Shown here: piece by piece, positions 19,419-61,698 of the stretch
How positions within the stretch are numbered: the stretch's first letter is position 1
Layout of the letters: the number at the start of each line of letters is the position of its first letter
Virus record (IMG/VR): IMGVR_UViG_3300010429_002123
Source: a virus
Taxonomy: Duplodnaviria > Caudoviricetes
DNA length: 64,000 bases
Reading direction: 5' to 3' (one strand)
Program-made: the position numbers and the translations under genes
The notes under the pieces: model-generated
Told to the model about the DNA's origin: nothing
The model's input: the letters and a program-made list of their open reading frames with translations, nothing else
Database searches by the model: none

Positions 19419-20045
19419 ATGGAACTTAATAAGATACTTAATAAAGATAGTTTTAAGGTTATGGGAGAACTCAATCCAGGGTCTGTGGGAACTATAATAG
19501 CTGACCCGGATTTCTGGGCAGATACCGGAAAGCTCGCTGTGTTTTTCAATCTGTCTAAGAAAGTGTTGCATGATGAAGGTTGCTTACTCCTGTGGACACC
19601 TCTCTGTTACGTAGACAGAGGGTTTCGTTTTTGCCAGCAGTATTTTTTCGTAGAAACTATGATTTTTGTTGAAAATCTGATTCATCCAGGCGGTAAAATT
19701 CTTGTAGATAAAAACTTTGTGATTTTGAAACTGGTAAAAAAAGAAATAGCTGTAGGAACTTACGGGGAAAATGTATTACTGAATGTATTCGTAAGTCCTC
19801 GTTATATAAGTATAAAAGCAGAAGACAAGTGTCTTGGGTATTTCTTGTCTCTTATAGAAAAATATCATGACCCTGAGAAAGGATTTATACTTGACCCTTT
19901 TTCCGGCCTGGGTTCTACAGCAACGGCTTCTTCCCTTCTTAAGAAGGATTACTTGGCTGTGGAAATAGATAGAGAACGTTATGAAAGGTCCTTAGAGTTT
20001 ATGAACTCCGTTTTAAAAGGTAATTGTGGGATTCAATATGTCTGA
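19419..20045 (+). CDS. DNA N4/N6-methyltransferase-like protein, paralogue 2 (DPDF)
   Basis: SVGTIIADPDFW; ILDPFSGLGST; shares LLWTPLCY and AEDKCLG with 17561. Confidence 0.75.
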   Translation: MELNKILNKDSFKVMGELNPGSVGTIIADPDFWADTGKLAVFFNLSKKVLHDEGCLLLWTPLCYVDRGFRFCQQYFFVETMIFVENLIHPGGKILVDKNFVILKLVKKEIAVGTYGENVLLNVFVSPRYISIKAEDKCLGYFLSLIEKYHDPEKGFILDPFSGLGSTATASSLLKKDYLAVEIDRERYERSLEFMNSVLKGNCGIQYV

Positions 20046-21252
20046 AGAAAATCAAGTAGCAATAACAAATAAGTTAATTATAGAGCAGGCTTATGGGAGG
20101 ACAGACTCAAAACCGGGAATAGTGATAGTTGTTAAACCGGGTAATAAATATGACCTTCAGATTTCCGGTATAACAGCTATTGTTCCCGAAGTACCCAGTG
20201 TTTACCCAAACTATGTCTTTAAAGTGGGGGACGCTGTAATTGTAGAGTGCCCCCTCGGAAGTGAGCACATGAGACAAATAGTAGCACCTTCTACTTTTGC
20301 TATACCAGAAGAAAGTATCTATGAGTTCTCAACGAAACCGAAGGAGAGACCAAAAGCCGGAGTTTCTATAGTAATTAGAAGCGGTTATAATTTTTATATT
20401 CATACGCTTGACCTTGAAGAGGGAGTTCCTCCTGTAGTGTATGATACCCCCGGAGTGGGTGATATGTGTATAGATACCCTCGGACACTGTCTTATACCTG
20501 ATTGGAATCAGTTATACAGGTATACAATAGAGACCGGGTTAACAGACAGTATAGAACTTGATGAAGGATATTTTTCCTCCTGTTGTATGAACAAGGCTAA
20601 CAATAATATGTATTTTCATAACGACCATTACTGGATGTATGGTTCAATTTTCAGAGTGACTCCAGAAATGTCCGTTCTCACTTTTATTTCGTCCCTTACT
20701 GTTCCTTTGGACAGTATTCAGTTCATAGCCTCTGATGGTACCTATACCTATGTATTCGGGTATGTGTGGATTTCAGAGCCCTATACCAGTTATTATAAAA
20801 ACATTATACAGGTGTATAACTATGATGGGACTTTTCATTCCTCATATTTCTGGCTGGAGGGAGAACCTTCATTTAATACAATGAAGATTTTTGGGGGAGA
20901 ACCCGGAGAAGTTTATAATATATTTTATAGTGACCAGACGTGGGAAGGTGCTAACTATACTATTCAAAAGTATTTAGTGTCCGATTTTTCAGAACCTGTG
21001 TTGTCTTTCAGTCTTGGCCATATGCACGTAGTACAGGACGTTGTCTATTATGATAATAACATATACGTGATAGAAGATTATGCAGAGGGAGATTGTGTTC
21101 CCCACGTATGGAAACTGGCTAAGTATTCTGCCAGTGGTTCTTTAATAAAAAGAGTAGACTTATCTGAGTTAAACGAGTGGAATAGTGCTGTTTTCATAGA
21201 TTACACGAATAAAACATTTATAGAGGACGGTGGGGGAGGAGGCATACCTTAA
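20038..21252 (+). CDS. Cassette 3: conserved N-domain fused to a full beta-propeller-like domain
   Basis: MSEENQVAI...KPKERP followed by about 300 aa of aromatic beta repeats (IQVYNYDG, KYSASG). Confidence 0.65.
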   Translation: MSEENQVAITNKLIIEQAYGRTDSKPGIVIVVKPGNKYDLQISGITAIVPEVPSVYPNYVFKVGDAVIVECPLGSEHMRQIVAPSTFAIPEESIYEFSTKPKERPKAGVSIVIRSGYNFYIHTLDLEEGVPPVVYDTPGVGDMCIDTLGHCLIPDWNQLYRYTIETGLTDSIELDEGYFSSCCMNKANNNMYFHNDHYWMYGSIFRVTPEMSVLTFISSLTVPLDSIQFIASDGTYTYVFGYVWISEPYTSYYKNIIQVYNYDGTFHSSYFWLEGEPSFNTMKIFGGEPGEVYNIFYSDQTWEGANYTIQKYLVSDFSEPVLSFSLGHMHVVQDVVYYDNNIYVIEDYAEGDCVPHVWKLAKYSASGSLIKRVDLSELNEWNSAVFIDYTNKTFIEDGGGGGIP

Positions 21253-46465: not shown

Positions 46466-47278
46466 GTGCACTGTATGATAACAAGAGGACTTTCCTTACC
46501 CGGAAGTAAACAAAAATCTTCAGGAAAAGGTCTTTATAACTGGGGGTCTATCCCGGAAGAAAAAGACCCTGAAGAGAAAAATGAGGAGACCACAACGGCT
46601 TCAGTAGGCACAGGGGTTCCTATGAACATTTTTAGTTCTACAAAAGAGCCGAAACCTAAAAAAAGAAAAGACAATTTTCCTGTTGAATACGGAAATGAAG
46701 AAAGAGAGTTGGTAGTCTATACAGGGCTGACTGACCTCTTTCCAAACGAAAAAAAGCCGAGAAAGTCACGGGGGAGCGAATTTACAGAAACTATCAGACA
46801 GCTTGAAGAAGAGTGTCTTGTTTTAGAAGACATGTGTGGGATACTCGAGGGTGGTCCCGGTAGTGGCCAGTATGAAAGACATTCTAACGGGATTCCGAAG
46901 AAAAAGACAGATTTAAGGCAAAACATCTTAAAGTCTGTGGAAGATGCAAACAGGTATTATAAACACGGAATACCGTCCGCCATAGGGGACTTCAAAGAGG
47001 CCAGTGCCAGCCTGAAAGCCTATCTGAAACACGTTGCGGGAGAGAACTCTTCTGAAATAAAATTTCCCCACGCCGAAAATTACAAAAAAGAACGTAGCAG
47101 ACTTCATAAAATTGCGACGTTTTCGAAGGGTTCGTTAGACCATTATAAAAAAATAGTGGACGAACTTACTCCGAAACTTCAGGCGGAGGAGGAGAATGAA
47201 AAAAGGCAGAAAAACAAAAATCCTTTCCTGGCAAAAATAATAGCTATGGATAAAGCAAAAAGAGGGGGGATAAAGTAA
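46466..47278 (+). CDS. E-GGPGSG family protein 1 (putative capsid-internal protein)
   Basis: RQLEEECLVLEDMCGILE-GGPGSG followed by a basic domain. Confidence 0.7.
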   Translation: MHCMITRGLSLPGSKQKSSGKGLYNWGSIPEEKDPEEKNEETTTASVGTGVPMNIFSSTKEPKPKKRKDNFPVEYGNEERELVVYTGLTDLFPNEKKPRKSRGSEFTETIRQLEEECLVLEDMCGILEGGPGSGQYERHSNGIPKKKTDLRQNILKSVEDANRYYKHGIPSAIGDFKEASASLKAYLKHVAGENSSEIKFPHAENYKKERSRLHKIATFSKGSLDHYKKIVDELTPKLQAEEENEKRQKNKNPFLAKIIAMDKAKRGGIK

Positions 47279-47283
47279 CAAGT

Positions 47284-47706
47284 ATGAAAGAGCTAGAACA
47301 GTTACAAGAAGAGTGTGAAATTCTAGAGTTACAATGTGGGTATCTCTTAGACGTATTAGCAGAAGGGGGTCCGGGAAGTGGTAGAAAACCTTCTTCAAGT
47401 ACTCATACGTCTCTGGAAGACTACTTGACAAAACATGCCACGGAAAACTTAACAAAAGGGTTGACTCTCGCTAAAAATCCCCGTAAGGAGGCCGAGGCCA
47501 AAAACACCCTTAGTTCAGCTTTAGGGCACGCTACAGCTTTATATAAATTAAAACTCGAACCGGACAGTGAGAGGAAAATCTTACGTTTCGAGACCTTCTG
47601 GGGGGACGCGGATAGTCATGGGGAAAAAATAAAAGCAAAAAACCCGTCTTTGGAGAAGTTACGGGGGCGGGCAATTAAAGCCCTGGAAGTCTTTCGAGAC
47701 CTTTAG
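47284..47706 (+). CDS. E-GGPGSG family protein 2
   Basis: QLQEECEILE...LAE-GGPGSGRKP. Confidence 0.75.
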   Translation: MKELEQLQEECEILELQCGYLLDVLAEGGPGSGRKPSSSTHTSLEDYLTKHATENLTKGLTLAKNPRKEAEAKNTLSSALGHATALYKLKLEPDSERKILRFETFWGDADSHGEKIKAKNPSLEKLRGRAIKALEVFRDL

Positions 47707-47729
47707 ACAAATAAGAAAGGAGGCAAGAA

Positions 47730-48242
47730 ATGAAAAACCTCAGGGAAGTGAACACCATTTTAGAACAGGATTGTGAAATTCTCGAAAAAGAGATAGTAAA
47801 GGTGATGACCCTCGTGTGTGAAGGAGGTCCAGGCTCTGGGAGAAGACCTTCCGGCCTAGCTCGAAGAACTATTGTTGGAAGAAAAGCAACCACACCAGAC
47901 AGAACCCCCGATGAAACCCTGAACTTATTAAAAGATGGTCATACAGCGAATATAAAAGGTTTTACCAGAGAGCCGAGGTACTCAGAAAAAGACGGTAAGA
48001 AAAGATTTTTTATACCTCAGTACCCTGATACTCTGATGAAAGTAGGAACTGACGCAGGATTTATAACAAAAGACCCCTCGGACACTAAGAAAGGGACAAG
48101 TCGAGGAGGAAGGTATAAGGGCTGGTCTTACTGGGCTCAGCACAAAGATACTTACACAGACATGGACAAAGATGCTGTGGATAAAAAAGTGTTTCTGCTC
48201 AAAAAAGCAATTGACACTGTAACATCGAAAGGAGCAAAATAA
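47730..48242 (+). CDS. E-GGPGSG family protein 3
   Basis: ILEQDCEILE...VCE-GGPGSGRRP. Confidence 0.75.
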   Translation: MKNLREVNTILEQDCEILEKEIVKVMTLVCEGGPGSGRRPSGLARRTIVGRKATTPDRTPDETLNLLKDGHTANIKGFTREPRYSEKDGKKRFFIPQYPDTLMKVGTDAGFITKDPSDTKKGTSRGGRYKGWSYWAQHKDTYTDMDKDAVDKKVFLLKKAIDTVTSKGAK

Positions 48243-49222
48243 TGTTAGCAATGAGGCAGTTAGAAGAAGAGTGCGGGGTTCTCGAAGCCCAGGTAGAAAT
48301 CCTTACCAAACAGTTAGAAGAGGGAGGACCAGGTTCTGGAAGGAAATCTTCTGGAGAAAACGCTTTCACAGGAATACAAAAAAAGTATGGCCTTGACGCC
48401 GATTCTATAAAAAAGGCTCAGGCTTGGAAAAAAGAAAAGAATTCTTCCGAGTCAGACGGCTTGAAACTGATAGCGAAAAGTGCTGCAAAATCAATTCTCG
48501 GACAGGCGAAAGAAAACCAGAAAGAAAAAATCAAACAGCTAAGAGCAGAATTCACCAGAAAAGCTAAAGAGATGCGTAATAAAGCGAAAGAAGAAAGTAT
48601 AGAGGCTCAAATCGAAGAGTTAAAAGAATATATAAGTTATCTTAACTCCGAACTCGCTGAGGGGGGTCCGGGCTCAGGCCGGAGACCTGGGGGAGGCTCA
48701 TCGGGCAAAAGTTCAGGAGGTTCAAAACACGGTTATGGTTGGGACACGGGTTACACCCCCTATGAAAGAAATCCGGTGGGGATAGAAAAACCTAAGTATG
48801 GTTACCATAACCAGGAAAGAAGCCTGCCTAACATGGTTGCCAGACTGTCGAGTTCTCATGGAGAAAAAGTCAATGACATAGATTCCCTTGTGAACCTTGA
48901 CATGAAAAGTCTGAAAAGAGACATTTCTCAGGGCGGGTTCGCTGCGGAAGACAAGGGGAGAGGCCACGGAGAGCACGAAGCAAGGAAAAAGTATTCAAAT
49001 GACCTGAAAAACCTCGTTAGAACCTATGAACAGGACGGGAACAAAGCTGACTTTGTGTCCAGCCTGGAAAGGCTCTCGAAAGAGTATACAAGCACAAAAT
49101 CCCCGCAGTCAAAAGGAACAAGTGCTATGGCCGACTATAAAAACGCTAAAAACAGCACATACGACCAGAGCCTTGCCCAGCACGGGAAAGAAATAGGGTT
49201 ACTTTTAAAGAATTTTAAATAA
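48242..49222 (+). CDS. E-GGPGSG family protein 4 (two modules)
   Basis: LEE-GGPGSGRK and an internal LAE-GGPGSGRRP. Confidence 0.75.
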   Translation: MLAMRQLEEECGVLEAQVEILTKQLEEGGPGSGRKSSGENAFTGIQKKYGLDADSIKKAQAWKKEKNSSESDGLKLIAKSAAKSILGQAKENQKEKIKQLRAEFTRKAKEMRNKAKEESIEAQIEELKEYISYLNSELAEGGPGSGRRPGGGSSGKSSGGSKHGYGWDTGYTPYERNPVGIEKPKYGYHNQERSLPNMVARLSSSHGEKVNDIDSLVNLDMKSLKRDISQGGFAAEDKGRGHGEHEARKKYSNDLKNLVRTYEQDGNKADFVSSLERLSKEYTSTKSPQSKGTSAMADYKNAKNSTYDQSLAQHGKEIGLLLKNFK

Positions 49223-49251
49223 ACTCAAATAATGAGAACAAAGGAGGACGT

Positions 49252-49821
49252 ATGAACAACATACAGAACATTCAAGAAGAAATAGTAGAGATAAATAAAG
49301 AACTTGCCCAACTGGCCGAAGAAATTGGTGTTGCCGTTGAGCAGAGGAGACAGGAATCTATAGAGAGCCTTGAAGAAGAAGTTGTGGTCTTAGAAGACCT
49401 TATAAAAACCCTTGAAGAAGGTGGTCCCGGTTCCGGTAGAAGACCTGGGGGTGGGATAAGAAGGAGAGTAGACTCTGCAACAGCAAAAAATCAGGACTGG
49501 AAAGATAGAATAAAAGACCATGCGATAGACTATGCAAAAAGAGCGTTGGACATGCATTCTACTTCGAACAGCTCAAAAGAAAATAACAGAATTAAACTGG
49601 CAAATGCCTTAGCCAACTTTAGTGCTTTTGACGACGAGATAAAACCCAAGAGCACTCTCAAAAACAAGCATTATGACGCCTATAACGTCCATGCCTCTCA
49701 TCTGGGAGACGCTTTTAAACGGGGAAGTGACTCTAATGACTCTCTGGCAAAAAGCCTAAAAGGCAGACTTGACAAAGAAACCCCAAAAAAAGTTGATTAT
49801 CACGACTTTAATAAATACTAA
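49252..49821 (+). CDS. E-GGPGSG family protein 5
   Basis: SLEEEVVVLE...LEE-GGPGSGRRP. Confidence 0.75.
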   Translation: MNNIQNIQEEIVEINKELAQLAEEIGVAVEQRRQESIESLEEEVVVLEDLIKTLEEGGPGSGRRPGGGIRRRVDSATAKNQDWKDRIKDHAIDYAKRALDMHSTSNSSKENNRIKLANALANFSAFDDEIKPKSTLKNKHYDAYNVHASHLGDAFKRGSDSNDSLAKSLKGRLDKETPKKVDYHDFNKY

Positions 49822-49837
49822 GAAGGGAGAATGAAAA

Positions 49838-50770
49838 ATGTTTGGTTTAGACGACAAACTTTCAGAACTCATTTTAGAACAGGTAGTCTCTGATGTAATC
49901 TTAAAACCCGCAAAGAACTTAAAGAAAAAGGAAGTTCAGCCAGATTCAGAGAAACCGACGGACAAAAAACCCTTAGAAAAGACAAAACTCATAGATAAAA
50001 AATGCGTTGAGGCAAGCATTGTTTCTACTATCGAAGAAGTGCTGAGGGAAGAGGGGATAAACCCCACAAAAACTCTTACCTCGTTCATCCTCACCAGACT
50101 TAAAGAGGAAACTGCTCCCGCTAAATTTATGCGAAAAAGAGCCAAGTCAGCTCTCGAACAGGAGGTAACAAAAACTCTCCCTAAAGATGATACGGTTCAG
50201 AAAATAAGTATAAAACCCGTTCCTTCCGGGAAAGTGCGTGCTCCAGGAGGAGTAAACCAGTATGTGCCCAGAGATACAGAAATGCCTTCTGTTACTGTAG
50301 CTATAATCACGGGAGAGAAACTTGGTAAGAAAAAGATGATTGATAAAAAAGTTGAAGAAAGCCTGAAGCCTTCCCATTTCTCCGGGCAAGCCGGAGTAAG
50401 AAACCCCGGGGCTCTGGCTGCGTATCTCGGAAGAAAAAAGATGGAACGAGAACACGGCACAGAAGAGGGGGCAAAAAAGTTTAAAGAAAAGGTAATGTTT
50501 GGCCAGAAAAGAAGTAAACACGAACAGGACTTCTCTGATAAGCTAGAAGCCGGTGAGCACATAACAACCCCTCCCGGTTTTATTCCCCCGGACAAACGAA
50601 CTCTCTGGATGGACACATGGAACACTGTTTACGACAGACAACTCTCCAAAGGAAAATCAGCCCAGCAGGCAGAAATCGTGGCTTACTCTGTGGCCACTAA
50701 AATGGTTCAGGACAGTCTCCCCGGAAAAGCCTTTAAGGAGGACAGAGAGTGTCTTACCAGAGTAGCTTAA
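49838..50770 (+). CDS. Basic protein with a C-terminal ChaB-like domain
   Basis: P......W...WN..Y.........A...A.SV pattern; VRNPGALAAYLGRKK. Confidence 0.55.
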   Translation: MFGLDDKLSELILEQVVSDVILKPAKNLKKKEVQPDSEKPTDKKPLEKTKLIDKKCVEASIVSTIEEVLREEGINPTKTLTSFILTRLKEETAPAKFMRKRAKSALEQEVTKTLPKDDTVQKISIKPVPSGKVRAPGGVNQYVPRDTEMPSVTVAIITGEKLGKKKMIDKKVEESLKPSHFSGQAGVRNPGALAAYLGRKKMEREHGTEEGAKKFKEKVMFGQKRSKHEQDFSDKLEAGEHITTPPGFIPPDKRTLWMDTWNTVYDRQLSKGKSAQQAEIVAYSVATKMVQDSLPGKAFKEDRECLTRVA

Positions 50771-52224
50771 AACTTCTTCTTTCAAAGAAAAAGTATAATA
50801 ACTTAAAAGAAAGTGGTTCTCCCGGTATGCAGTGGGGCTTTACAAAAGGCCAGCCGAACGGCGGGAGAACCGCTAAAAAGCCGGAACCTGAAGAGTATAA
50901 AAGTAACGTCATAGACAGCGTGCCTTTAGAGTATAAGGCCGTTATGGACGACCTAGTGAAAGCGGGGCATAAATCTTATTTTGTAGGGGGAGCGGTTCGG
51001 GATACCATTTTAGGAAAACCTCCAAAAGACTGGGACATCACAACAAGTGCTCCCGTTGAAGAAAGTGTTAAAGTCCTTGAGAACCTCGGAACCGTCTTAG
51101 GAATTGGCCAGCAGTACGGAATAGCTATAGGGACAATAAACGGAAAACAAATAGAGGTGGCCTCGTTTAGAAAAGACCTGGGTTACTCAGACAAAAGAAG
51201 ACCGGACGAAGTGATAACCCGGGGGGTCTCCGAAGAAGAAGACGTCCAAAGAAGAGACTTCACCATGAATGGTCTCCTTATGGACTTAAGGGGGAATATA
51301 AAAGACTATGTCGGAGGTATAGACGACCTGAGTAAGAAAATTATTCGCTTCATAGGAGACCCTGATGCCAGAGTAGCTGAGGATAGTATAAGAATGCTCC
51401 GAGCAGTAAGGTTTGCAACACGTTTTGACTTTAATATAGACGAAGACTCCCTGGAAGCCATAAGAAGAAACAGGCAGGACATCTATAATACCTCCTACGA
51501 GCGTATCAGAGACGAACTGGACAAATCTTTCGGTAAAAACCCTCAAAAGGCTGTGGAACTCTTACAGCAGACCGGCTTAGACAAAACTCTCTTCGGAGAA
51601 CTAAACCCTAAAGATTTCCCGAAAACTGTAGAGTCAACTGCCATAGTCTGGGGGAGTTTACTTTCAGATAAAGGGCTGGAGACTTACAAACTTCCTGTGG
51701 GCGTAAAAAAGACTGTCAGCACTATTAAAAAGCTGGGGGAGGACTACGAGAACGTCTCCGATGACCCTATAGAGCGGAAAAAATTAAAAATAGCCATAGA
51801 GAAAGTGTTACCCGTAGAAGAATTTGATAAGTTTTTAAAAATGGCTGGTAAAGAGCAGAAATTTAATTTAAAATCTATAAAAGTCCCTGAGGATACTACT
51901 CCTCTGGTTCAAGGAAAAGACCTTATGAATCTGGGAAAGAAACCCGGAAAGAACTTTTCTGACCTATTAAACAAAGGGTATAGTATGCAACTTCAGGGAA
52001 AAAGTAAAGAAGAAATTTTGAACATACTAAGGAATGAAGGTGTGGGTTACTCTACACTTCTAAAAATAGAAAACCTGTTAGATAAGCGGGAGTGGCTCAA
52101 TGAGACCTTAAAGACTGGCACACAAAGAGGTTATTCCCGGCTTTATGCAGACACCTTGATACAGGAATGTGAAATGCTTGACCTTTACGCAGGGGTAGTA
52201 ATGACTCAGTTACTGAGAAGGTAA
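50749..52224 (+). CDS. cca: Class II tRNA nucleotidyltransferase (CCA-adding enzyme) with N- and C-terminal extensions
   Basis: GGAVRD..LG..PKDWDI, EVASFR.D..YSDKRRP, RRDFTMN, EDSIRMLRAVRF, ERIRDEL. Confidence 0.9.
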   Translation: MSYQSSLKLLLSKKKYNNLKESGSPGMQWGFTKGQPNGGRTAKKPEPEEYKSNVIDSVPLEYKAVMDDLVKAGHKSYFVGGAVRDTILGKPPKDWDITTSAPVEESVKVLENLGTVLGIGQQYGIAIGTINGKQIEVASFRKDLGYSDKRRPDEVITRGVSEEEDVQRRDFTMNGLLMDLRGNIKDYVGGIDDLSKKIIRFIGDPDARVAEDSIRMLRAVRFATRFDFNIDEDSLEAIRRNRQDIYNTSYERIRDELDKSFGKNPQKAVELLQQTGLDKTLFGELNPKDFPKTVESTAIVWGSLLSDKGLETYKLPVGVKKTVSTIKKLGEDYENVSDDPIERKKLKIAIEKVLPVEEFDKFLKMAGKEQKFNLKSIKVPEDTTPLVQGKDLMNLGKKPGKNFSDLLNKGYSMQLQGKSKEEILNILRNEGVGYSTLLKIENLLDKREWLNETLKTGTQRGYSRLYADTLIQECEMLDLYAGVVMTQLLRR

Positions 52225-52277
52225 AGATTCGAGACGCTATGTAAGAAAATAGTAAGTACAAAAGGAGGAAAAGACGA

Positions 52278-52850
52278 ATGAAAAGGCTGAACACAGAAAT
52301 AAGAAAACTGGAAAGAGAATGTGACTTCTTAGAGGGGCAGGTTGCCGAAGTTATGCAGTATTTATGGGAAGGTGGACCAGGTTCCGGGAGAAAACCGGGA
52401 GGACATGGCTATGGTCATGATTCAGCAGGAACACCTAAGTATGGTTTCCACAACCCGGAGCGTAATCTCCCAAACGCTCTTGCTATAGCTTCTAACCGGT
52501 TGGGCTACCTTGTCAACGGGGCTGACAAAGACTATGAAAAAGAAAAAACAGCCATAAAAACTGGTAAGTCCTCGGACTATTACAAAGGATTCGTGCATGG
52601 GGAGCACAAGGGAATGAGACAATTCACAAATGACCTGAAGGGTCTTGTTCAAGATTACGAGAAGAACGGAGATGAGAAGGGTTTAAGAGACAAAGCTCAC
52701 GCCCTTGCTAAAACCTATGATGACACTCCTGAGTTCTCTTCACCCGGAAAATCTGGCTTAGACGATTATAAAAATGAAAAAGGAAAAGGGTATAAAAGCC
52801 AGTTAAGAGCTCACAGTGATGAATTGAAAGGTATTTTAAAACGCTTTTAA
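52278..52850 (+). CDS. E-GGPGSG family protein 6 (paralogue of module 2 of 48242)
   Basis: KLERECDFLE...LWE-GGPGSGRKP; HGYG.D, PKYG.HN.ER.LPN, NDLK.LV..YE..G shared with 48242. Confidence 0.78.
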   Translation: MKRLNTEIRKLERECDFLEGQVAEVMQYLWEGGPGSGRKPGGHGYGHDSAGTPKYGFHNPERNLPNALAIASNRLGYLVNGADKDYEKEKTAIKTGKSSDYYKGFVHGEHKGMRQFTNDLKGLVQDYEKNGDEKGLRDKAHALAKTYDDTPEFSSPGKSGLDDYKNEKGKGYKSQLRAHSDELKGILKRF

Positions 52851-53229: not shown

Positions 53230-53258
53230 ATAATAGCATAACTTAATATACTTGTCAA
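53230..53258 (-). promoter_or_regulatory. Strong sigma70-type early promoter
   Basis: Reverse strand TTGACA-17-TATTAT with TG extension. Confidence 0.8.
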
Positions 53259-53325
53259 TACTTTTTGTAAAAATAAGTTAACTATTTTTTAGGGAAAAGA
53301 AGTTAGCTATTTTTTACAAAAAGGC

Positions 53326-56076: not shown

Positions 56077-56123
56077 AGTCTTTTTAGAACTAAAAATTTT
56101 TGTTAATGAAAAGGAGAAAACTT

Positions 56124-56426
56124 ATGAAGTGCTTAAGTCTTTACTCGGAATACATAGAGGAGATACTTTCCGGTGAAAAAACGGAGGAATATCGCAGTTG
56201 GAAAATATCCTGCCCACAGGACATATTGTTGGTAGGTAGCAAGTCCCCCCGTGGGAAATACTCCGGGTTAGGTGCCTGTATTGTGCACGTATCAAGGATA
56301 GAAGGACAAAAACCTAATTACGATTGGATTTTGGAAAACGTACGACCTGTGGAGCCTTTTCCAGTAAAGGGAAAGCTCGGCCTGTATGAAATACCCGATA
56401 ATCTTATTCGTCTATTAAAAGACTAG
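56124..56426 (+). CDS. ASCH domain protein
   Basis: LSL...Y...IL.GEKT.EYRSW......L....W.L..VRP..P.PVKGKLGL. Confidence 0.85.
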   Translation: MKCLSLYSEYIEEILSGEKTEEYRSWKISCPQDILLVGSKSPRGKYSGLGACIVHVSRIEGQKPNYDWILENVRPVEPFPVKGKLGLYEIPDNLIRLLKD

Positions 56427-56455
56427 TTTACACAGAAAGCGAAATATGATAAAAT
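56427..56455 (+). promoter_or_regulatory. Promoter for the Gly-Gly-tail cluster, followed by a 5'-UTR hairpin at 56474..56494
   Basis: TTTACA-17-TAAAAT with TG extension; agactacc-tataa-ggtggtct. Confidence 0.6.
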
Positions 56456-56525
56456 AAAGGAAACTGACCCGATAGACTACCTATAAGGTGGTCTTTCCTA
56501 TTTTAAAAAGAAAGGAATTGATAGA

Positions 56526-56960
56526 ATGGCTGAACTTAAGTATACTACGAAGAAAACCCCTGAGCAGTTAGAAAAAGAACAAAAAGTATTTGCGAAAAAG
56601 TATCCGTATGGGGAAATTTTAAAAGACTATCACAGACTCCAGAGGTCACTGAAGCCGAGCGAAAGAGATTACTTAAAAGACACAAGAGATGCCCTGAAAC
56701 CTCTCGCCTCTTCAAATAACAGGGAGGAAGTAGCCTCCGCTCTCGCCGCAACCACAGGGGCTGCAGCCTGGCTGAAAAGACGCATGGACGAAGCCGATGG
56801 AAAAACCGTTACCCCCGCTTCATGGGACAGGGTGGCCGAAGAAACAGAAAAGCTGACAAAATCTCTGCTGGCCGGAAACCGAGACATAGAAAGTATGAGA
56901 GACGAACTCAAGTGGAGACTGAAAACAGCATGGCATAAAGGTGGACTCGTAGGGAGCTAA
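56526..56960 (+). CDS. Small basic protein ending GGLVGS
   Basis: RBS aaagga; Gly-rich C-terminus. Confidence 0.7.
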   Translation: MAELKYTTKKTPEQLEKEQKVFAKKYPYGEILKDYHRLQRSLKPSERDYLKDTRDALKPLASSNNREEVASALAATTGAAAWLKRRMDEADGKTVTPASWDRVAEETEKLTKSLLAGNRDIESMRDELKWRLKTAWHKGGLVGS

Positions 56961-57008
56961 ATCACATCATATTCAAATATTAAAATTAAAAGAAAGGCGG
57001 GAAAAAAC

Positions 57009-57338
57009 ATGGCAGATACAGCGACAGCTCCAGTTAATGCTACAATCAGAAACCCAAAAGGTCTGAATCCTTCGGACGTAAGGGACATGAACAAGTACAC
57101 CAAGTATTATAACAAAAAGCAGAAACTCATCGGTAAACTCGCAAGAGAAAATGCTCTTATGCAGGTAGAAAAAAGCCCCTCAAAGAAGCCGAAGATGGCT
57201 GCCTCCGAAAGAGCCAGACTTTTCAAAAAAGATATGTGGGGACAAAGTCTAAGAACCCTTGAAAATTACGCAAAATTACCACCCGCAGAACGGGCAAGAA
57301 CACCTTTTAAAGACGTTGCGGCAGTAGGAGGGGGTTAA
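57009..57338 (+). CDS. Small basic protein ending AVGGG
   Basis: C-terminal diglycine. Confidence 0.7.
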   Translation: MADTATAPVNATIRNPKGLNPSDVRDMNKYTKYYNKKQKLIGKLARENALMQVEKSPSKKPKMAASERARLFKKDMWGQSLRTLENYAKLPPAERARTPFKDVAAVGGG

Positions 57339-57342
57339 GTAA

Positions 57343-57699
57343 ATGGCGAAATCAGTGGGAGATATACTCAGAAAGTTAGTTTCAGACAGGGCTAAAACTC
57401 TGGACAAAACTTACGATAAAAAATACCCGAACGCAAATAACCAGTCAAAACAGGACAGAACACAGAGAAATATAGATATACTAAAATCTATCTCAAACGC
57501 AAGAAGAGCAGGAAAAGAACTAACCCCCAAAGACCTCGCTTACATGGTCTGGGACGCTTCGGCCAAAAAGGGAACCGGTTGGCACGGAGCTGACGGGCGA
57601 CCTATGACAGCAGATAAGATTGAAAACCTTATAGCAAGTGACATGGCAAAGGCTGGTTTACGCTCGCCCGATTCCGCCAGTGGTGGAACCGGGGGTTAA
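57343..57699 (+). CDS. Small basic protein ending SGGTGG
   Basis: C-terminal diglycine. Confidence 0.7.
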   Translation: MAKSVGDILRKLVSDRAKTLDKTYDKKYPNANNQSKQDRTQRNIDILKSISNARRAGKELTPKDLAYMVWDASAKKGTGWHGADGRPMTADKIENLIASDMAKAGLRSPDSASGGTGG

Positions 57700-57720
57700 G
57701 CAACAAAGGAGGGACATGCA

Positions 57721-58161
57721 GTGGCCACGTATATAGGTTCAAAAATGCCCAAAGGAAGGGCTACTCTCTCTAACAAAGACATCTTAAAAGCCGTGCAGAA
57801 TATGATAAAAGAGAAAGATAGACAAGATGTGAGAAGGTGGGGAGAACCTGACGAGCAGGACAAAAAATGGAACAAAGAAAGAGATAAAAACATAAAGGAC
57901 GCCTTAGGTAAACTCTCCGGTAAGGTCTCTGCTGAAGACGCCTTGAAACGGCTTGGGGGACTCAAAAAACAAGAAGTTTCTCCCTCACTGTTTAAAGATG
58001 ATTACCTTTATAAGGGCTCTCCTTATTTCGATAAAGATGAGTTAGGATACTTAAAAGACGAGATAAGAAAAGTAGAGACAAGGAAGACTCTTGACTATCA
58101 GAAAAAAAGGGAAAGAGCAATGACCCCGGATATGTTTGGAAAAAGCGGGTCAGGAGGCTAA
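57721..58161 (+). CDS. Small basic protein ending SGSGG (paralogue of 58256)
   Basis: KTLDYQK.RERAMTPDMF shared with 58256. Confidence 0.75.
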   Translation: MATYIGSKMPKGRATLSNKDILKAVQNMIKEKDRQDVRRWGEPDEQDKKWNKERDKNIKDALGKLSGKVSAEDALKRLGGLKKQEVSPSLFKDDYLYKGSPYFDKDELGYLKDEIRKVETRKTLDYQKKRERAMTPDMFGKSGSGG

Positions 58162-58255
58162 TAGTAGACCATAGGAATCTTTTTTTAGATATGGATTCAA
58201 TCTTAAACAACAGAACTTCTGCCCCGACAGGGACAGGAGGTATAGGAGGTTAAAA

Positions 58256-58669
58256 ATGCCCACATATTATGGAGGAAAAACTCCCAACAAACGAGTAGCT
58301 TTAAACAAAAATGAAATAATGAAAGCTGTTAAGGCTGTTTTAAAAAAAGAATATGACGACGAGGATAGATATTCTTCCCCGGACAAAGAAACTTTAAATG
58401 ACCGTAAGGAAAGAGAAAAAGGTCTAAGAAAGAAAATGGATTCTCTTTCTAAAAATCCCTCCGTTGAAGAGATTACCTCTGCTCTCTCCAACGTAAAAAT
58501 GAAAGATATAGTCGGAAGAGGTGAATCTGCCTTTTTTACAAAGGGGGAGTTAAAAGACGTTGAGAAAAAAATAGGACAAGCAGAAGTTAAAAAAACTCTT
58601 GATTACCAGAAAGCAAGGGAAAGGGCGATGACTCCTGACATGTTTGCTGTGGGTGGGTCAGGAGGATAA
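58256..58669 (+). CDS. Small basic protein ending GGSGG (paralogue of 57721)
   Basis: Shares KTLDYQK.RERAMTPDMF with 57721; strong RBS. Confidence 0.75.
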   Translation: MPTYYGGKTPNKRVALNKNEIMKAVKAVLKKEYDDEDRYSSPDKETLNDRKEREKGLRKKMDSLSKNPSVEEITSALSNVKMKDIVGRGESAFFTKGELKDVEKKIGQAEVKKTLDYQKARERAMTPDMFAVGGSGG

Positions 58670-58671
58670 GT

Positions 58672-59448
58672 ATGATAAATTTATGTAGACTATCTGAACA
58701 GGTAGAGATACTTGAAGAGATGGTAAGTATTTTAGAAGGGGGTCCTCCGAAAGACGGAGGACCCGGCAGTGGGAACTATGAAAGGCGCAAGCAGTATGAC
58801 CCGGAAACTCAGGAAATGGTTGATTTTTTAGGCAAGGTTGTGGGGGGAGCACTTGACTCCTCTCTTAACCCCCGTGACTTCGCTCACACGAAACATTATG
58901 TACCTCCTGCCCTGAAAGCTCACCGACTGGAGGCTCTTGATTTCGCAATGGCGTTCTGGCAAATGCAAAAAGAAGACAAGCCAAGTATAGATAACTTTTA
59001 TGCCAATGCTAAAAAGAACACAGAAAAATTCACAAAAGACAACATGTCTCAAGATGACCTGCTCGACCGTCTTGCAAACGCTAAAAAATTCATAGTCGGA
59101 GAGAAGTTTACTGCCCGACAGGAAGACACACCCGAACAAAAAGAGCTTCGAAAGATTGACCGCCTGCTGGCGAGCAAAGACCCTATTCCTTACTCGATAG
59201 CTCTCGGACGGCTTAGCAAAGAAGGGGGAACACGCCTAAGAGACACTGGAGACCCCAAGAAGGAGCAACATCTCGACTTAAAAGCTATTGACGCTATCAC
59301 TGCAGAAAAGAATTATAATCTGAGAAACTTCCCTCACAGAAAAGACCCTTCTCCCTACTACAATGGCCTTACCAAACAGTTAGTTACCAGGGTAAAAGAA
59401 AGAGCAGAGAAACACGGAATTTCAGTTAAAAAAGCAGATTATGAATAG
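58672..59448 (+). CDS. E-GGPGSG family protein 7
   Basis: RLSEQVEILEEMVSILE-GGPPKDGGPGSG. Confidence 0.72.
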   Translation: MINLCRLSEQVEILEEMVSILEGGPPKDGGPGSGNYERRKQYDPETQEMVDFLGKVVGGALDSSLNPRDFAHTKHYVPPALKAHRLEALDFAMAFWQMQKEDKPSIDNFYANAKKNTEKFTKDNMSQDDLLDRLANAKKFIVGEKFTARQEDTPEQKELRKIDRLLASKDPIPYSIALGRLSKEGGTRLRDTGDPKKEQHLDLKAIDAITAEKNYNLRNFPHRKDPSPYYNGLTKQLVTRVKERAEKHGISVKKADYE

Positions 59449-59473
59449 ACTCTAAACAGACAAGGAAAACTTT

Positions 59474-60241
59474 ATGACAAAATTGCAAAAAGCTAAAGAC
59501 CTTCTAAAAAGCATCGAGAGCACGGAGGTTCTCGTTGCTTTCTCCGGTGGAAAGGACTCCATCGTAACTCTCGACCTGTGCTGTGAAATGTTCGAGCGGG
59601 TCGAAGCGTTTTACATGTATATAGTTAAAGATTTAAACTTTGTTAATTCCTTTCTCGACCCTCTGGCAGAAAAGTATGAGATTAAACTCCACAGAGTTCC
59701 TCACTATATTCTGTGTCAGGCTTACAAGCTGGGACTCTACACAATAAATTACTCTTTTCAGGAATCTGAACTGAGGCTCAGTGACGTAGAGACTTACATA
59801 AAGGCCAAAACCGGGATAGAATGGATTGCCAACGGGGCAAGAAAAGCGGACAGCATCGAAAGACTCGCTATGCTTTCAAACAATGGGGGGATTGACCGAA
59901 ACACTCACAAGGTATATCCCATAGCTGAGTGGAAAGCTGAAGATGTCCGCAGTTACCTGAGGTTAAGAAACCTTCCTTTGCCGGAAAATCAGGGGAAGAA
60001 AATGTCCGGGGTTGACCTCTGCCCGGAAACTCTCTGCTGGATTCAGGAAAACCACCCTTCAGACTTTGAAAAAATCAAAAACATCTTTCCTTTCGTGGAA
60101 GCTCCTGTGAAACGAAAAGAGTTTTTGCTAAAGCGGGGGGAGAGTGTCCCAGTCCCAGTTGACCCCCCGGCTAAGAAGAAGCGGGGGAAGAAGAGTCTTG
60201 ACAAGACCAACACCCGCGTTGAGGATAAGACTCTGGCATAA
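59474..60241 (+). CDS. PP-loop ATPase, PAPS-reductase family
   Basis: VAFSGGKDS PP-loop; G.RKADS..R; YPIAEW...DV. Confidence 0.85.
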   Translation: MTKLQKAKDLLKSIESTEVLVAFSGGKDSIVTLDLCCEMFERVEAFYMYIVKDLNFVNSFLDPLAEKYEIKLHRVPHYILCQAYKLGLYTINYSFQESELRLSDVETYIKAKTGIEWIANGARKADSIERLAMLSNNGGIDRNTHKVYPIAEWKAEDVRSYLRLRNLPLPENQGKKMSGVDLCPETLCWIQENHPSDFEKIKNIFPFVEAPVKRKEFLLKRGESVPVPVDPPAKKKRGKKSLDKTNTRVEDKTLA

Positions 60242-60595
60242 ACTGCAGGGAAGAGCGTTTGCTATCTTCTCCCTCTTTTCCAAGTCATACCCCGCTATAT
60301 AAAGAACAGCTCCTATTGTCTCTTTTCTTCCCGCGTGAAGCAAGGCATTTGCCTCAGCATGGCAGGAACCACACAAATCATATCTTTCTCCGGGGGGTAT
60401 GTTTCTTTTTTGCCTCTCACAGTAACCCAGGTCGATGCAGTTAGTCTCTCCTCTGGGTCTCCCGTTATAACCTGTGCTTATTATGTTATCATCTTTTACT
60501 ATTATGGCTCCGTATTTTCTCCGAAGACACGTCGAACGTTCATAGACGGCCTCCGTTATATTAAAATAGTATTCATCTTTCGTTAGTCTTCTCAT
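60128..60595 (-). CDS. dCMP deaminase
   Basis: RSTC.RR..GA.IV.D..IISTGYNG, HAEANA, PC..C. Confidence 0.92.
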   Translation of the reverse strand: MRRLTKDEYYFNITEAVYERSTCLRRKYGAIIVKDDNIISTGYNGRPRGETNCIDLGYCERQKRNIPPGERYDLCGSCHAEANALLHAGRKETIGAVLYIAGYDLEKREKIANALPCSLCQSLILNAGVGLVKTLLPPLLLSRGVNWDWDTLPPL

Positions 60596-60657: not shown

Positions 60658-60715
60658 CTCTTTCCCTTGCTGTGGAAGGTTCGGAAAGAAAGTTAACTTA
60701 TTTTTACAAAAAGTA

Positions 60716-60745
60716 TTGACAAGTAATATGGGACTATGCTATTAT
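60716..60745 (+). promoter_or_regulatory. Strong early promoter for ardC
   Basis: TTGACA-18-TATTAT with TG extension; upstream block identical to that of the 53.25-kb promoter. Confidence 0.8.
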
Positions 60746-60807: not shown

Positions 60808-61698
60808 ATGAAAACATACAAAAAGACCGAAAAAACAGAAAACAAGGAGACCGTTGCTGACAAAATCACAGCTAATATAATAGCTGAACTGGAAAAAGGA
60901 AACTTAGCTTGGAGCAGAAACTGGACTGGAACCGCCCCGACAAATGCCATGTCAAAAAAAGAATACCGTGGTATAAACAGACTGAACCTGATGCTGGTAG
61001 GTATGGACAAAGGTTTCCAGAGTCCATACTGGATGACTTACAACCAGGCAAAAGACCTGGGCGGTAATGTCATAGCAGGCTCTAAAGGCTCACAAGTAAT
61101 ATACTGGAAAGTCCTCAAATATGACAAAATAGACGAAGAGACTCAGGAAGTCTCCTCAAAGTCAATACCTTATATGAGATATTCCACAGTATTCAACCTT
61201 GACCAGATTGAAAACATCGACAAAACAAAGTTCGAGACCAAGAAAACACAAGTAAACCCTGTGGAAGAGGCCGAAAAAATCATAAGAAATTATCAGAATG
61301 GTCCAGCTATCGAGTTCGGGTGTTTCAATCCGTGCTACAGACCCGCAACAGACGAAGTCAAAATGCCCGCTATAAATGCGTTCAACAGTGAAGAAGGTTA
61401 CTACTCAACAATGTTTCACGAGCTCGGTCACTCGACAGGACATGCAACAAGACTGAATAGAGAAGAAGTCGTAGGAGTAAACTTCTTCGGTAGCCACAAC
61501 TACGCGACAGAAGAGTTAGTAGCCGAGTTTACAAGTGCTTTCTGCTGTGCAAGCTGTGGTATGTCTAATGAAAAAGTCATTGAAAATCAGGCCGCATATG
61601 TACAAAACTGGTTAAAAGTCTTAAAAAATGACAGAAAAATGGTCATAAATGCGGCAGCCCGTGCAGAAAAATCTTACGCCAGAATACTCGGAAGGTAA
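60808..61698 (+). CDS. ardC: ArdC-family antirestriction / ssDNA-binding protein with a zincin domain
   Basis: Y.GIN...L......W.TY.QA...GG.V..G.KG, VFN..Q, Y.P..D.V.MP, HELGHSTGH..RL.R, YA.EELVAE, Y..NW...L. Confidence 0.9.
   Translation: MKTYKKTEKTENKETVADKITANIIAELEKGNLAWSRNWTGTAPTNAMSKKEYRGINRLNLMLVGMDKGFQSPYWMTYNQAKDLGGNVIAGSKGSQVIYWKVLKYDKIDEETQEVSSKSIPYMRYSTVFNLDQIENIDKTKFETKKTQVNPVEEAEKIIRNYQNGPAIEFGCFNPCYRPATDEVKMPAINAFNSEEGYYSTMFHELGHSTGHATRLNREEVVGVNFFGSHNYATEELVAEFTSAFCCASCGMSNEKVIENQAAYVQNWLKVLKNDRKMVINAAARAEKSYARILGR

Follow-up and report, generated by a model that had tools for sequence, protein, structure and literature searches.

Chemical activation of a C-terminal carboxylate occurs in ubiquitin, ThiS, MoaD, TtuB, Pup and microcin C. 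TtuB ends in Gly-Gly, and its tail enters the active site of TtuA; Pup does not have a β-grasp fold. In FAD synthase and CysD, AMP from ATP is placed on an oxyanion and pyrophosphate (PPi) is released. The Dnd system combines a ParB-superfamily protein, DndB, with DndC, a PP-loop ATP pyrophosphatase that acts on DNA and resembles reductases of 3′-phosphoadenosine 5′-phosphosulfate (PAPS) (PMC10853773). Phage genes of the PAPS-reductase type have been presented as auxiliary metabolic genes (AMGs) for sulfur (PMC10434257; bioRxiv 10.1101/2021.07.29.453957), and the clade considered here is routinely reported under that heading. Here, we describe a gene cluster in a stretch of 64,000 nucleotides (the window) from the viral record IMGVR_UViG_3300010429_002123 (Duplodnaviria; Caudoviricetes), in which an ASCH-domain gene and five genes for small basic proteins with Gly-rich C-termini (Gly-tailed proteins) precede a PP-loop enzyme of the PAPS-reductase family. 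Comparison with related loci assigns this clade to a module with ParB-like, ASCH and Gly-tailed proteins instead, and the window cluster is very probably a member of that phage cassette.

The record comprises 183,650 bp and is estimated to be 78% complete, and the same PP-loop enzyme is also found on a 234-kb contig; the source is therefore a jumbo phage. DNA of the window is present in anaerobic-digester and activated-sludge samples. The genes of the cluster are as follows:

56124–56426, plus strand: ASCH-domain protein, 100 aa from the ATG (PF04266, E 2e-5; phrog_3193, E 6e-16)
56526–56960, plus strand: Gly-tailed basic protein 1, 144 aa, ending KGGLVGS
57009–57338, plus strand: Gly-tailed basic protein 2, 109 aa, ending AAVGGG
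57343–57699, plus strand: Gly-tailed basic protein 3, 118 aa, ending SASGGTGG, which fits the GGxGG-COOH consensus
57721–58161, plus strand: Gly-tailed basic protein 4, 146 aa, ending GKSGSGG, a paralogue of protein 5
58256–58669, plus strand: Gly-tailed basic protein 5, 137 aa, ending AVGGSGG, a paralogue of protein 4
58672–59448, plus strand: 258-aa protein without a Gly tail, between the fifth small open reading frame (ORF) and the enzyme
59474–60241, plus strand: PP-loop ATP pyrophosphatase of the PAPS-reductase family, 255 aa (PF01507, E 9.5e-15)

For the ASCH gene, a TTG at 56100 is also open as a start. A first-pass annotation, made from the letters of the window and its ORFs, had described five consecutive small basic ORFs with Gly-rich ends; they exist as described, and the independent gene calls of identical public contigs give the same genes for the whole cluster. 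It had also placed the PP-loop enzyme downstream of the five, and this order holds, with the five at 0.8–3 kb upstream of the enzyme on its strand, but the ORF for the 258-aa protein intervenes.

The five tailed proteins have isoelectric points (pI) of 9.4–10.2 and net charges of +6 to +13, and contain no Cys at all. Four of them end in Gly-Gly, and two fit GGxGG-COOH exactly. The tails are non-random: at least three Gly residues among the last six were found in 6 of the 244 ORFs of the whole record, five of which are this consecutive run. (The only other strongly Gly-tailed ORF of the window, at 20026–21252, encodes a 408-aa protein of the structural region that ends EDGGGGGIP.) Stop-codon recoding and a single polyprotein were also considered and are ruled out, as the five ORFs occupy all three frames. 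The proteins had been described as unrelated in sequence except for one paralogue pair, which was borne out: only the products of the 57721 and 58256 ORFs are related (42% identity), and they are best conserved in the C-terminal 25 residues (KTLDYQKxRERAMTPDMFxxGSGG). An AlphaFold2 (AF2) model of the 137-aa protein 5 consists entirely of helices, with residues 126–137 unstructured, at a mean predicted local distance difference test (pLDDT) score of 69. A β-grasp fold was not found in this protein: the AF2 model is helical, and an Atlas model is of low confidence. The earlier proposal of helical, non-β-grasp modifiers thus agrees, at moderate confidence, with the one protein modelled.

Gly-terminated neighbours of homologous PP-loop genes, whose absence would have refuted the first-pass proposal, were surveyed, as the first-pass annotation had suggested, and were found. 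Eighty viral loci (numbered L below) were fetched by an alignment-based search (a single-protein query gave no confirmed locus), and the 80 contigs were dereplicated to 41 enzyme clusters at 80% identity. In 24 of these, a Gly-tailed ORF stopped at most 100 nt upstream of the enzyme, and in 28 one lay within 3 kb on the same strand, whereas the background of such tails was 0.4% (15 of 3608 ORFs). Most of the tailed ORFs belong to one tiny family of 40–90 aa that is Arg-rich, of low complexity and protamine-like, with a pI of ≈12 and the consensus M..IQRRINRTTGV..R..RRKSxGGxGG-stop. Several of these peptides have neither Asp nor Glu, so that the C-terminus is their sole carboxylate. A profile of the tiny peptide matched 36 proteins among 1.84 billion representatives, and the motif ends the protein in all but one of them, a frameshift-like variant. 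Looking up the genomic surroundings in this reverse direction gave the same arrangement in four of four cases, with the tiny peptide followed after 0–3 nt by a PAPS_reduct gene and then by a gene for ≈220 aa, which in related loci is ParB-like. ASCH was nearby in three of the four, and the fourth contig is cut.

The tail is common to bodies that are otherwise unrelated, namely the tiny Arg-rich class, the 99–167-aa classes of Lactobacillus phages, a Mu-like class and four classes in the window. For the window proteins, a search of 5.8 billion clusters returned only the query itself; no homologue was found in the related loci or by Atlas features, and no Pfam or PHROG family matched. They were assigned to the partner class by tail, charge and position, and not by sequence homology. 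A further ORF at L015:8950-9444, ≈2.3 kb downstream of the enzyme, encodes a 164-aa protein that ends RRKIGSNGG on a larger, non-basic and possibly globular body, which suggests that the Gly tail can be appended to other proteins as well.

Gly codons could be retained merely as a Shine-Dalgarno (SD) sequence for the next gene. In the window this applies in part, to two of the five tails: in the 57009 and 58256 ORFs, the tail codons coincide in part with the SD of the following gene, which begins 4 and 2 nt downstream, respectively, and the codons gga-ggg-ggt of the protein 2 tail double as that SD. The other three tails do not overlap an SD, and after protein 4 the next gene is 94 nt off. For the family the explanation was rejected. 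Among 21 distinct GGxGG tails, the Gly codons were mostly GGC or GGT and an SD-like word occurred in 2, and tails were kept where the gap to the enzyme was 39–79 nt. Judged from these sequences, selection acts on the tail as part of the protein.

The same observations bear on an explanation without any chemical link, in which the tailed products are DNA-condensing or virion-internal basic proteins whose Gly ends serve flexibility or translational coupling, and the genes simply share an expression block. The SD overlap of two window tails and the protamine-like character of the peptides would fit, and the 258-aa ORF and the ORFs at 46–53 kb resemble capsid-targeted cargo. However, an SD-like word in only 2 of 21 family tails, gaps of up to 79 nt and a tail background of 0.4% speak against it, as does an association that recurs whichever way the search is run and across three genome contexts unrelated to one another. 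We consider this explanation improbable.

The remaining components of the cassette recur as well. A ParB-like gene (phrog_9353, E down to 1e-85) was adjacent in all 41 clusters, usually overlapping the enzyme stop codon. The ASCH gene, which the first-pass annotation had already noted upstream of the tailed ORFs, was present in 25 of the 41, and homologues of the window ASCH protein were found by phmmer within 6 kb of the enzyme in ≈35 related loci. ASCH, Gly-tailed and ParB-like genes occurred all together in 21 of the clusters. In the window, no terminase or ParB gene is present near the cluster; the only phrog_9353 gene of this genome (E 8.6e-60, 273 aa, with an SGHQR motif; G000:C1:8247-8909) lies 83 kb from the enzyme rather than immediately downstream.

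Three genomic settings were seen. Most commonly, the cassette heads the packaging operon, before the genes for the small terminase subunit, the large terminase subunit and the portal (e.g., L024, L027 and Bacteroides phage BS-TP2). In Mu-like phages (L087) it is located between portal and MuF, with a 45-aa basic ORF ending KSGGGGGSKG. The window represents the third setting, an early or counter-defence region. Tails and ASCH remain beside the enzyme even in places that lack terminase and ParB; the link between enzyme and tail is therefore one of function and not of position, and a functional coupling of the tailed proteins to the enzyme is probable.

Among cultured phages, the cassette is found in the IbrA/IbrB-type gene sets of BS-TP2, RAP44, JNU_P7 and LR1. 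In the lytic phage BS-TP2, gp52–gp55 encode ASCH, a 53-aa ORF ending GANGSNG, the enzyme and the ParB-like protein, followed by terminase. The temperate Lactobacillus gasseri phage JNU_P7 has three basic proteins of 99–140 aa, ending STGSKGG, STGSRGG and SFGSKGG, around the enzyme and ParB-like genes, and L. reuteri phage LR1, also temperate, has one basic tailed protein, ending GSSGKSSG. In Riemerella phage RAP44 (gp34–gp32), a 44-aa basic ORF ends KANGAI (L097:2845-2979). The tailed proteins of LR1 (L096), JNU_P7 (L098) and BS-TP2 are annotated only as hypothetical, and the small basic ORF of RAP44 is missing from its GenBank annotation; the smallest tailed proteins are often left unannotated. 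The window cluster shares with these phages the enzyme family (23–36% identity by tblastn), the ASCH family, the ParB-like family of its genome and basic partners with Gly-rich C-termini, of which JNU_P7 has up to three. It differs in having five tailed proteins rather than 1–3, none of them related in sequence to known partners, in the distance of 83 kb to the ParB-like gene, and in having no terminase nearby and neighbours of the counter-defence type. The set of five is the largest seen, although several tailed proteins per phage also occur in JNU_P7.

The SGGKDS loop of the window enzyme corresponds to residues 24–29, and the last 40 aa are basic and disordered. Ninety-six homologues were found, and an alignment of 24 (A1), in which the window enzyme is 31–49% identical to the metagenomic members, has S24, G26, K27, D28, H77, G121, D126, R130, P149, P195, D197 and P206 as invariant residues. 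No Cys is invariant; the sole frequent one (20 of 24) is in the helix after the PP-loop, and the C-termini are variable. The enzyme is thereby placed in a Cys-less PAPS-reductase-like clade with SGGKDS, H77, D126 and R130, whose cores are mostly basic (median pI 9.2).

By its Pfam and PHROG names and its PAPS_reduct fold (PF01507), the protein could be taken for an AMG of the CysH type, that is, a reductase of PAPS or adenosine 5′-phosphosulfate (APS) boosting host sulfate assimilation. Against this, an invariant Cys and a C-terminal motif of the ECGLH type are both missing from the family, and SGGKDS is a canonical ATP-binding loop. The NCBIfam cysH models scored far under their cut-offs (TIGR00434, 30.6 bits vs 165.1; NF002537, 26.8 vs 154; TIGR02057, 22.1 vs 254), as did all the curated models (CysH, CysD, TilS, LarE). 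Sulfur genes do not belong to the constant partners, which are ParB-like, ASCH and Gly-tailed proteins, and no sulfate-assimilation gene was seen among the neighbours examined, in agreement with the first-pass annotation, which had listed a true PAPS reductase among the outcomes that would refute its proposal. As read from its residues, the enzyme cannot reduce PAPS in the manner of CysH. It is almost certainly not an enzyme of sulfate assimilation, and a CysH-type AMG can practically be discounted.

The AF2 model of the enzyme (pLDDT 87.6) gave the human FAD synthase PAPS-type domain (8ROM) as the top match in VIA-align (Z 16.6, root-mean-square deviation 2.5, 152 residues aligned), followed by CysD (1ZUN, Z 15.9), APS reductase (4BWV, Z 15.3), TilS/MesJ (Z 15.0), LarE (Z 14.9) and CysH (6VPU, Z 13.9). 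Foldseek also ranked TtuA high, including the TtuA-TtuB complex 5GHA; the TtuA/NcsA-type match is confined to the PP-loop core, residues 1–182. The Protein Data Bank titles among the fold matches include PP-loop enzymes with a protein partner, TtuA-TtuB (5GHA) and Cap9-CdnD (9NTO). In its modelled structure, the enzyme most resembles transferases that place AMP from ATP on an oxyanion. FAD synthase and CysD, the best structural matches, have an intact PP-loop like the window enzyme; however, the identity is only 16–18%, the context is neither FMN- nor sulfate-binding, a CysN partner is missing, and the CysD NCBIfam scores are far below cut-off.

By these properties, the cluster is very probably the jumbo-phage form of a widespread four-part cassette of ASCH, one or more basic tailed proteins, a Cys-less PP-loop enzyme and a ParB-like protein, in which the tailed gene has been expanded to five and the ParB-like gene moved 83 kb off. 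The only feature that the tailed partners have in common is a free, flexible Gly-rich C-terminus, GGxGG-COOH or S-x-G-S-[KR]-G-G-COOH. GGxGG stands nearly always at the very end of unrelated proteins, a placement typical of systems that activate a C-terminal carboxylate. The thin, flexible tail would enter the active site of the enzyme, which would put AMP from ATP on the terminal carboxylate, as FAD synthase and CysD do with oxyanions, and the activated glycine would then be handed to an amine. Phage DNA or RNA would be the most likely site of the reaction, given the basic charge of the enzyme and the tailed proteins and the nucleic-acid binding of their ParB-like and ASCH partners. Candidate end products would be a protein–nucleic acid amide, a protein–protein amide or a C-terminal amide. 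The data show that the enzyme is tightly coupled in the genomes, in both directions, to Gly-tailed, ASCH and ParB-like proteins, that selection acts on the extreme C-terminus of unrelated bodies, and that the ATP pyrophosphatase site is intact and has no redox Cys; that the tail is adenylated, that the glycine passes to an amine and that nucleic acid is the setting, we infer. The best overall explanation is a cassette in which the tailed proteins are dedicated partners of the enzyme and most likely its substrates, which we hold tentatively, at somewhat less than an even likelihood. That the enzyme adenylates the tail carboxylate is suggested by analogy and is possible, though short of probable. 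The broadest form of the proposal, a phage-wide E1-independent tagging in which the terminal Gly is adenylated and the proteins are joined to DNA bases, RNA or proteins with the help of ParB-like and ASCH proteins, appears rather doubtful.

In this proposal the cassette would resemble Pup-PafA and the ubiquitin, ThiS and MoaD systems, which likewise use small modifiers with a Gly-containing C-terminal tail that is activated by ATP before ligation. The activator would differ, being a PP-loop ATP pyrophosphatase and not an E1 Rossmann enzyme or a glutamine-synthetase-like ligase. No E1-type (ThiF/MoeB) enzyme was found among the cassette genes of the window or the related loci, where the PP-loop protein is the only ATP-using enzyme, and no homologue of an E2, an E3 or a deconjugating enzyme was seen. 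A co-fold of the enzyme (with its alignment), ATP, Mg and the C-terminal 40 residues of protein 3 (118 aa) scored 0.02 (mark 0.32), which has no bearing either way on binding. Fused forms of the enzyme, which would speak against the need for a free C-terminus, were not found among proteins of 479–2000 aa; this is weak evidence.

The pairing of a PP-loop enzyme with a small GG-ended protein is also that of TtuA-TtuB and Ncs6-Urm1, and the TtuA-TtuB complex is among the best Foldseek matches. By the same logic, the GG tails could be thiocarboxylated and act as carriers that deliver sulfur to an adenylated nucleotide. However, TtuA and NcsA have three Cys for a [4Fe-4S] cluster and Zn-finger domains, whereas the window enzyme has no conserved Cys or Fe-S ligands. 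The cassette partners are strongly basic, and the carrier as modelled is helical or disordered, not β-grasp. Nor does the cassette include an E1-like, rhodanese, cysteine desulfurase or other sulfur-mobilising gene. A sulfur carrier is thus very unlikely.

Several observations weigh against adenylation and ligation of the tails. About one third of the enzyme clusters have no GG-terminal neighbour, and their partners end RRLRRG (the L056 group), KANGAI (RAP44) or GANGSNG (BS-TP2); a strict Gly-Gly carboxylate is therefore not universal. For the five tailed proteins of the window, sequence homologues were not found, and no acceptor, transferase or conjugate hydrolase was identified, unless ASCH or the ParB-like protein serves as such. 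Finally, the basic enzyme cores and the ParB-like protein as the only universal partner fit a nucleic-acid substrate.

The last point leads to an alternative in which the enzyme and the ParB-like protein adenylate phage DNA or RNA, and ASCH reads or removes the mark. The tailed proteins would then not be substrates but DNA-bound cofactors or regulators, which coat or target the nucleic acid or use their thin tail to gate the active site. The modified site would be a base carbonyl, as for TilS or TtuA, or, along the lines proposed for DndC with DndB, the backbone. Because the ParB-like partner is obligate and the enzyme is basic, a nucleic-acid-directed reaction is a serious rival. It is favoured by the presence of the ParB-like gene in 41 of 41 clusters, the protamine-like tiny peptides, the usual position of the cassette at the head of a DNA-packaging operon, and the strong fold matches to TilS, TtuA and NcsA. 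The Dnd system offers a parallel, since DndB is of the ParB superfamily and DndC is a PP-loop enzyme (PMC10853773); however, the cassette has no DndA, DndD or DndE, and Dnd has no Gly-tailed partner. Compared with DndC, TtuA and TilS, the enzyme itself is without their Cys dyad, Fe-S ligands and extra RNA-binding domains, and there is no gene for a sulfur or amine donor in the cassette. Modification of DNA or RNA also leaves unexplained why unrelated partners converge on a free Gly-rich C-terminus. We assign this alternative a low but appreciable likelihood.

Returning to the tailed proteins as partners and likely substrates of the enzyme, full-text literature searches returned no paper that describes such a partner for the PAPS-reductase-like enzymes of phages (subscription journals were outside their coverage). 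New are an association quantified in both directions, GGxGG-COOH as a hallmark common to unrelated partner classes, and a five-fold expanded, ParB-unlinked jumbo variant. The ParB-like partner, the basic charge of the enzyme itself and the spread of the cassette to cultured phages were absent from the first-pass annotation. Phages that carry the cassette include those of Bacteroides and Lactobacillus in the gut and jumbo phages from wastewater. If the proposal is true, phage infection would include a new tagging of DNA or proteins by an activator from a different superfamily, either as a ribosomally made mark on nucleic acid or as a new protein-modifier system, with five modifiers in one jumbo phage. 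The more conservative alternative, a new DNA modification with protamine-like cofactors, would also matter for restriction evasion.

The 258-aa protein between protein 5 and the enzyme has no Pfam or PHROG match. It has an N-terminal helical leader and an ILE-GGPPKDGGPGSGN tag, and is one of a large family of proteins in this phage that share such a tag. An acidic helical leader at the N-terminus, followed by L-x-E-GGPGSG[RQN], is present in at least eight ORFs of the window (46466–52850; 58672–59448), and L-[ST]-E-GGPPKDGG[VI]GSGNW in ≈10 further ORFs at the far end of the genome (record 166700–182300, outside the window). Leader and tag resemble the T4 L-x-E type of targeting tag, which is cleaved by a protease.

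Two features were noted between the ASCH gene and protein 1:

56427–56455, plus strand: sigma-70-like promoter match (TTTACA-17-TAAAAT with TG) from a consensus scan, 10/12, weak on its own
56474–56494, plus strand: hairpin after the promoter match

The first-pass annotation had placed the five ORFs behind one promoter at 56427; a consensus match is indeed located there, but at just 10/12. Contigs from an activated-sludge metatranscriptome span 56495–57990, 58059–59603 and 59701–60411, and the one that begins at 56495, just past the hairpin, is no more than a hint for the promoter. As contigs from RNA libraries may contain DNA and cannot show transcript ends, the coverage from 56495 onward is only a hint of expression.

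The cluster is surrounded by genes of the counter-defence type (ArdC-N/MPTase, dCMP deaminase, Gad1 and Thg1) in an early-looking region. A protein with ArdC-N and MPTase-PolyVal domains, a Gad1-family (anti-Gabija) and a Thg1-like protein adjoin the module (window 60808–61698; L083:10677-12373), and in L094, an unrelated locus, the cassette also has an ArdC-N/MPTase gene beside it. On the minus strand, a gene for a dCMP/cytidine deaminase (60128–60595) overlaps the last 114 nt of the enzyme gene, the stretch that encodes the basic, disordered C-terminal extension. In a blastn comparison, the region had no match in cultured phages. Five copies of a conserved 38-nt element, AAAGTTAACTTATTTTTACAAAAAGTATTGACA.., are present in the record with at most 5 mismatches, at 60689–60726 (plus strand) and ≈53248–53285 (minus strand) of the window and at three places elsewhere in the genome. 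An 11/12 promoter match at 60716 has its −35 box within the element, which probably represents a phage promoter class. Metagenome assemblies break at the copy near 60689–60726.

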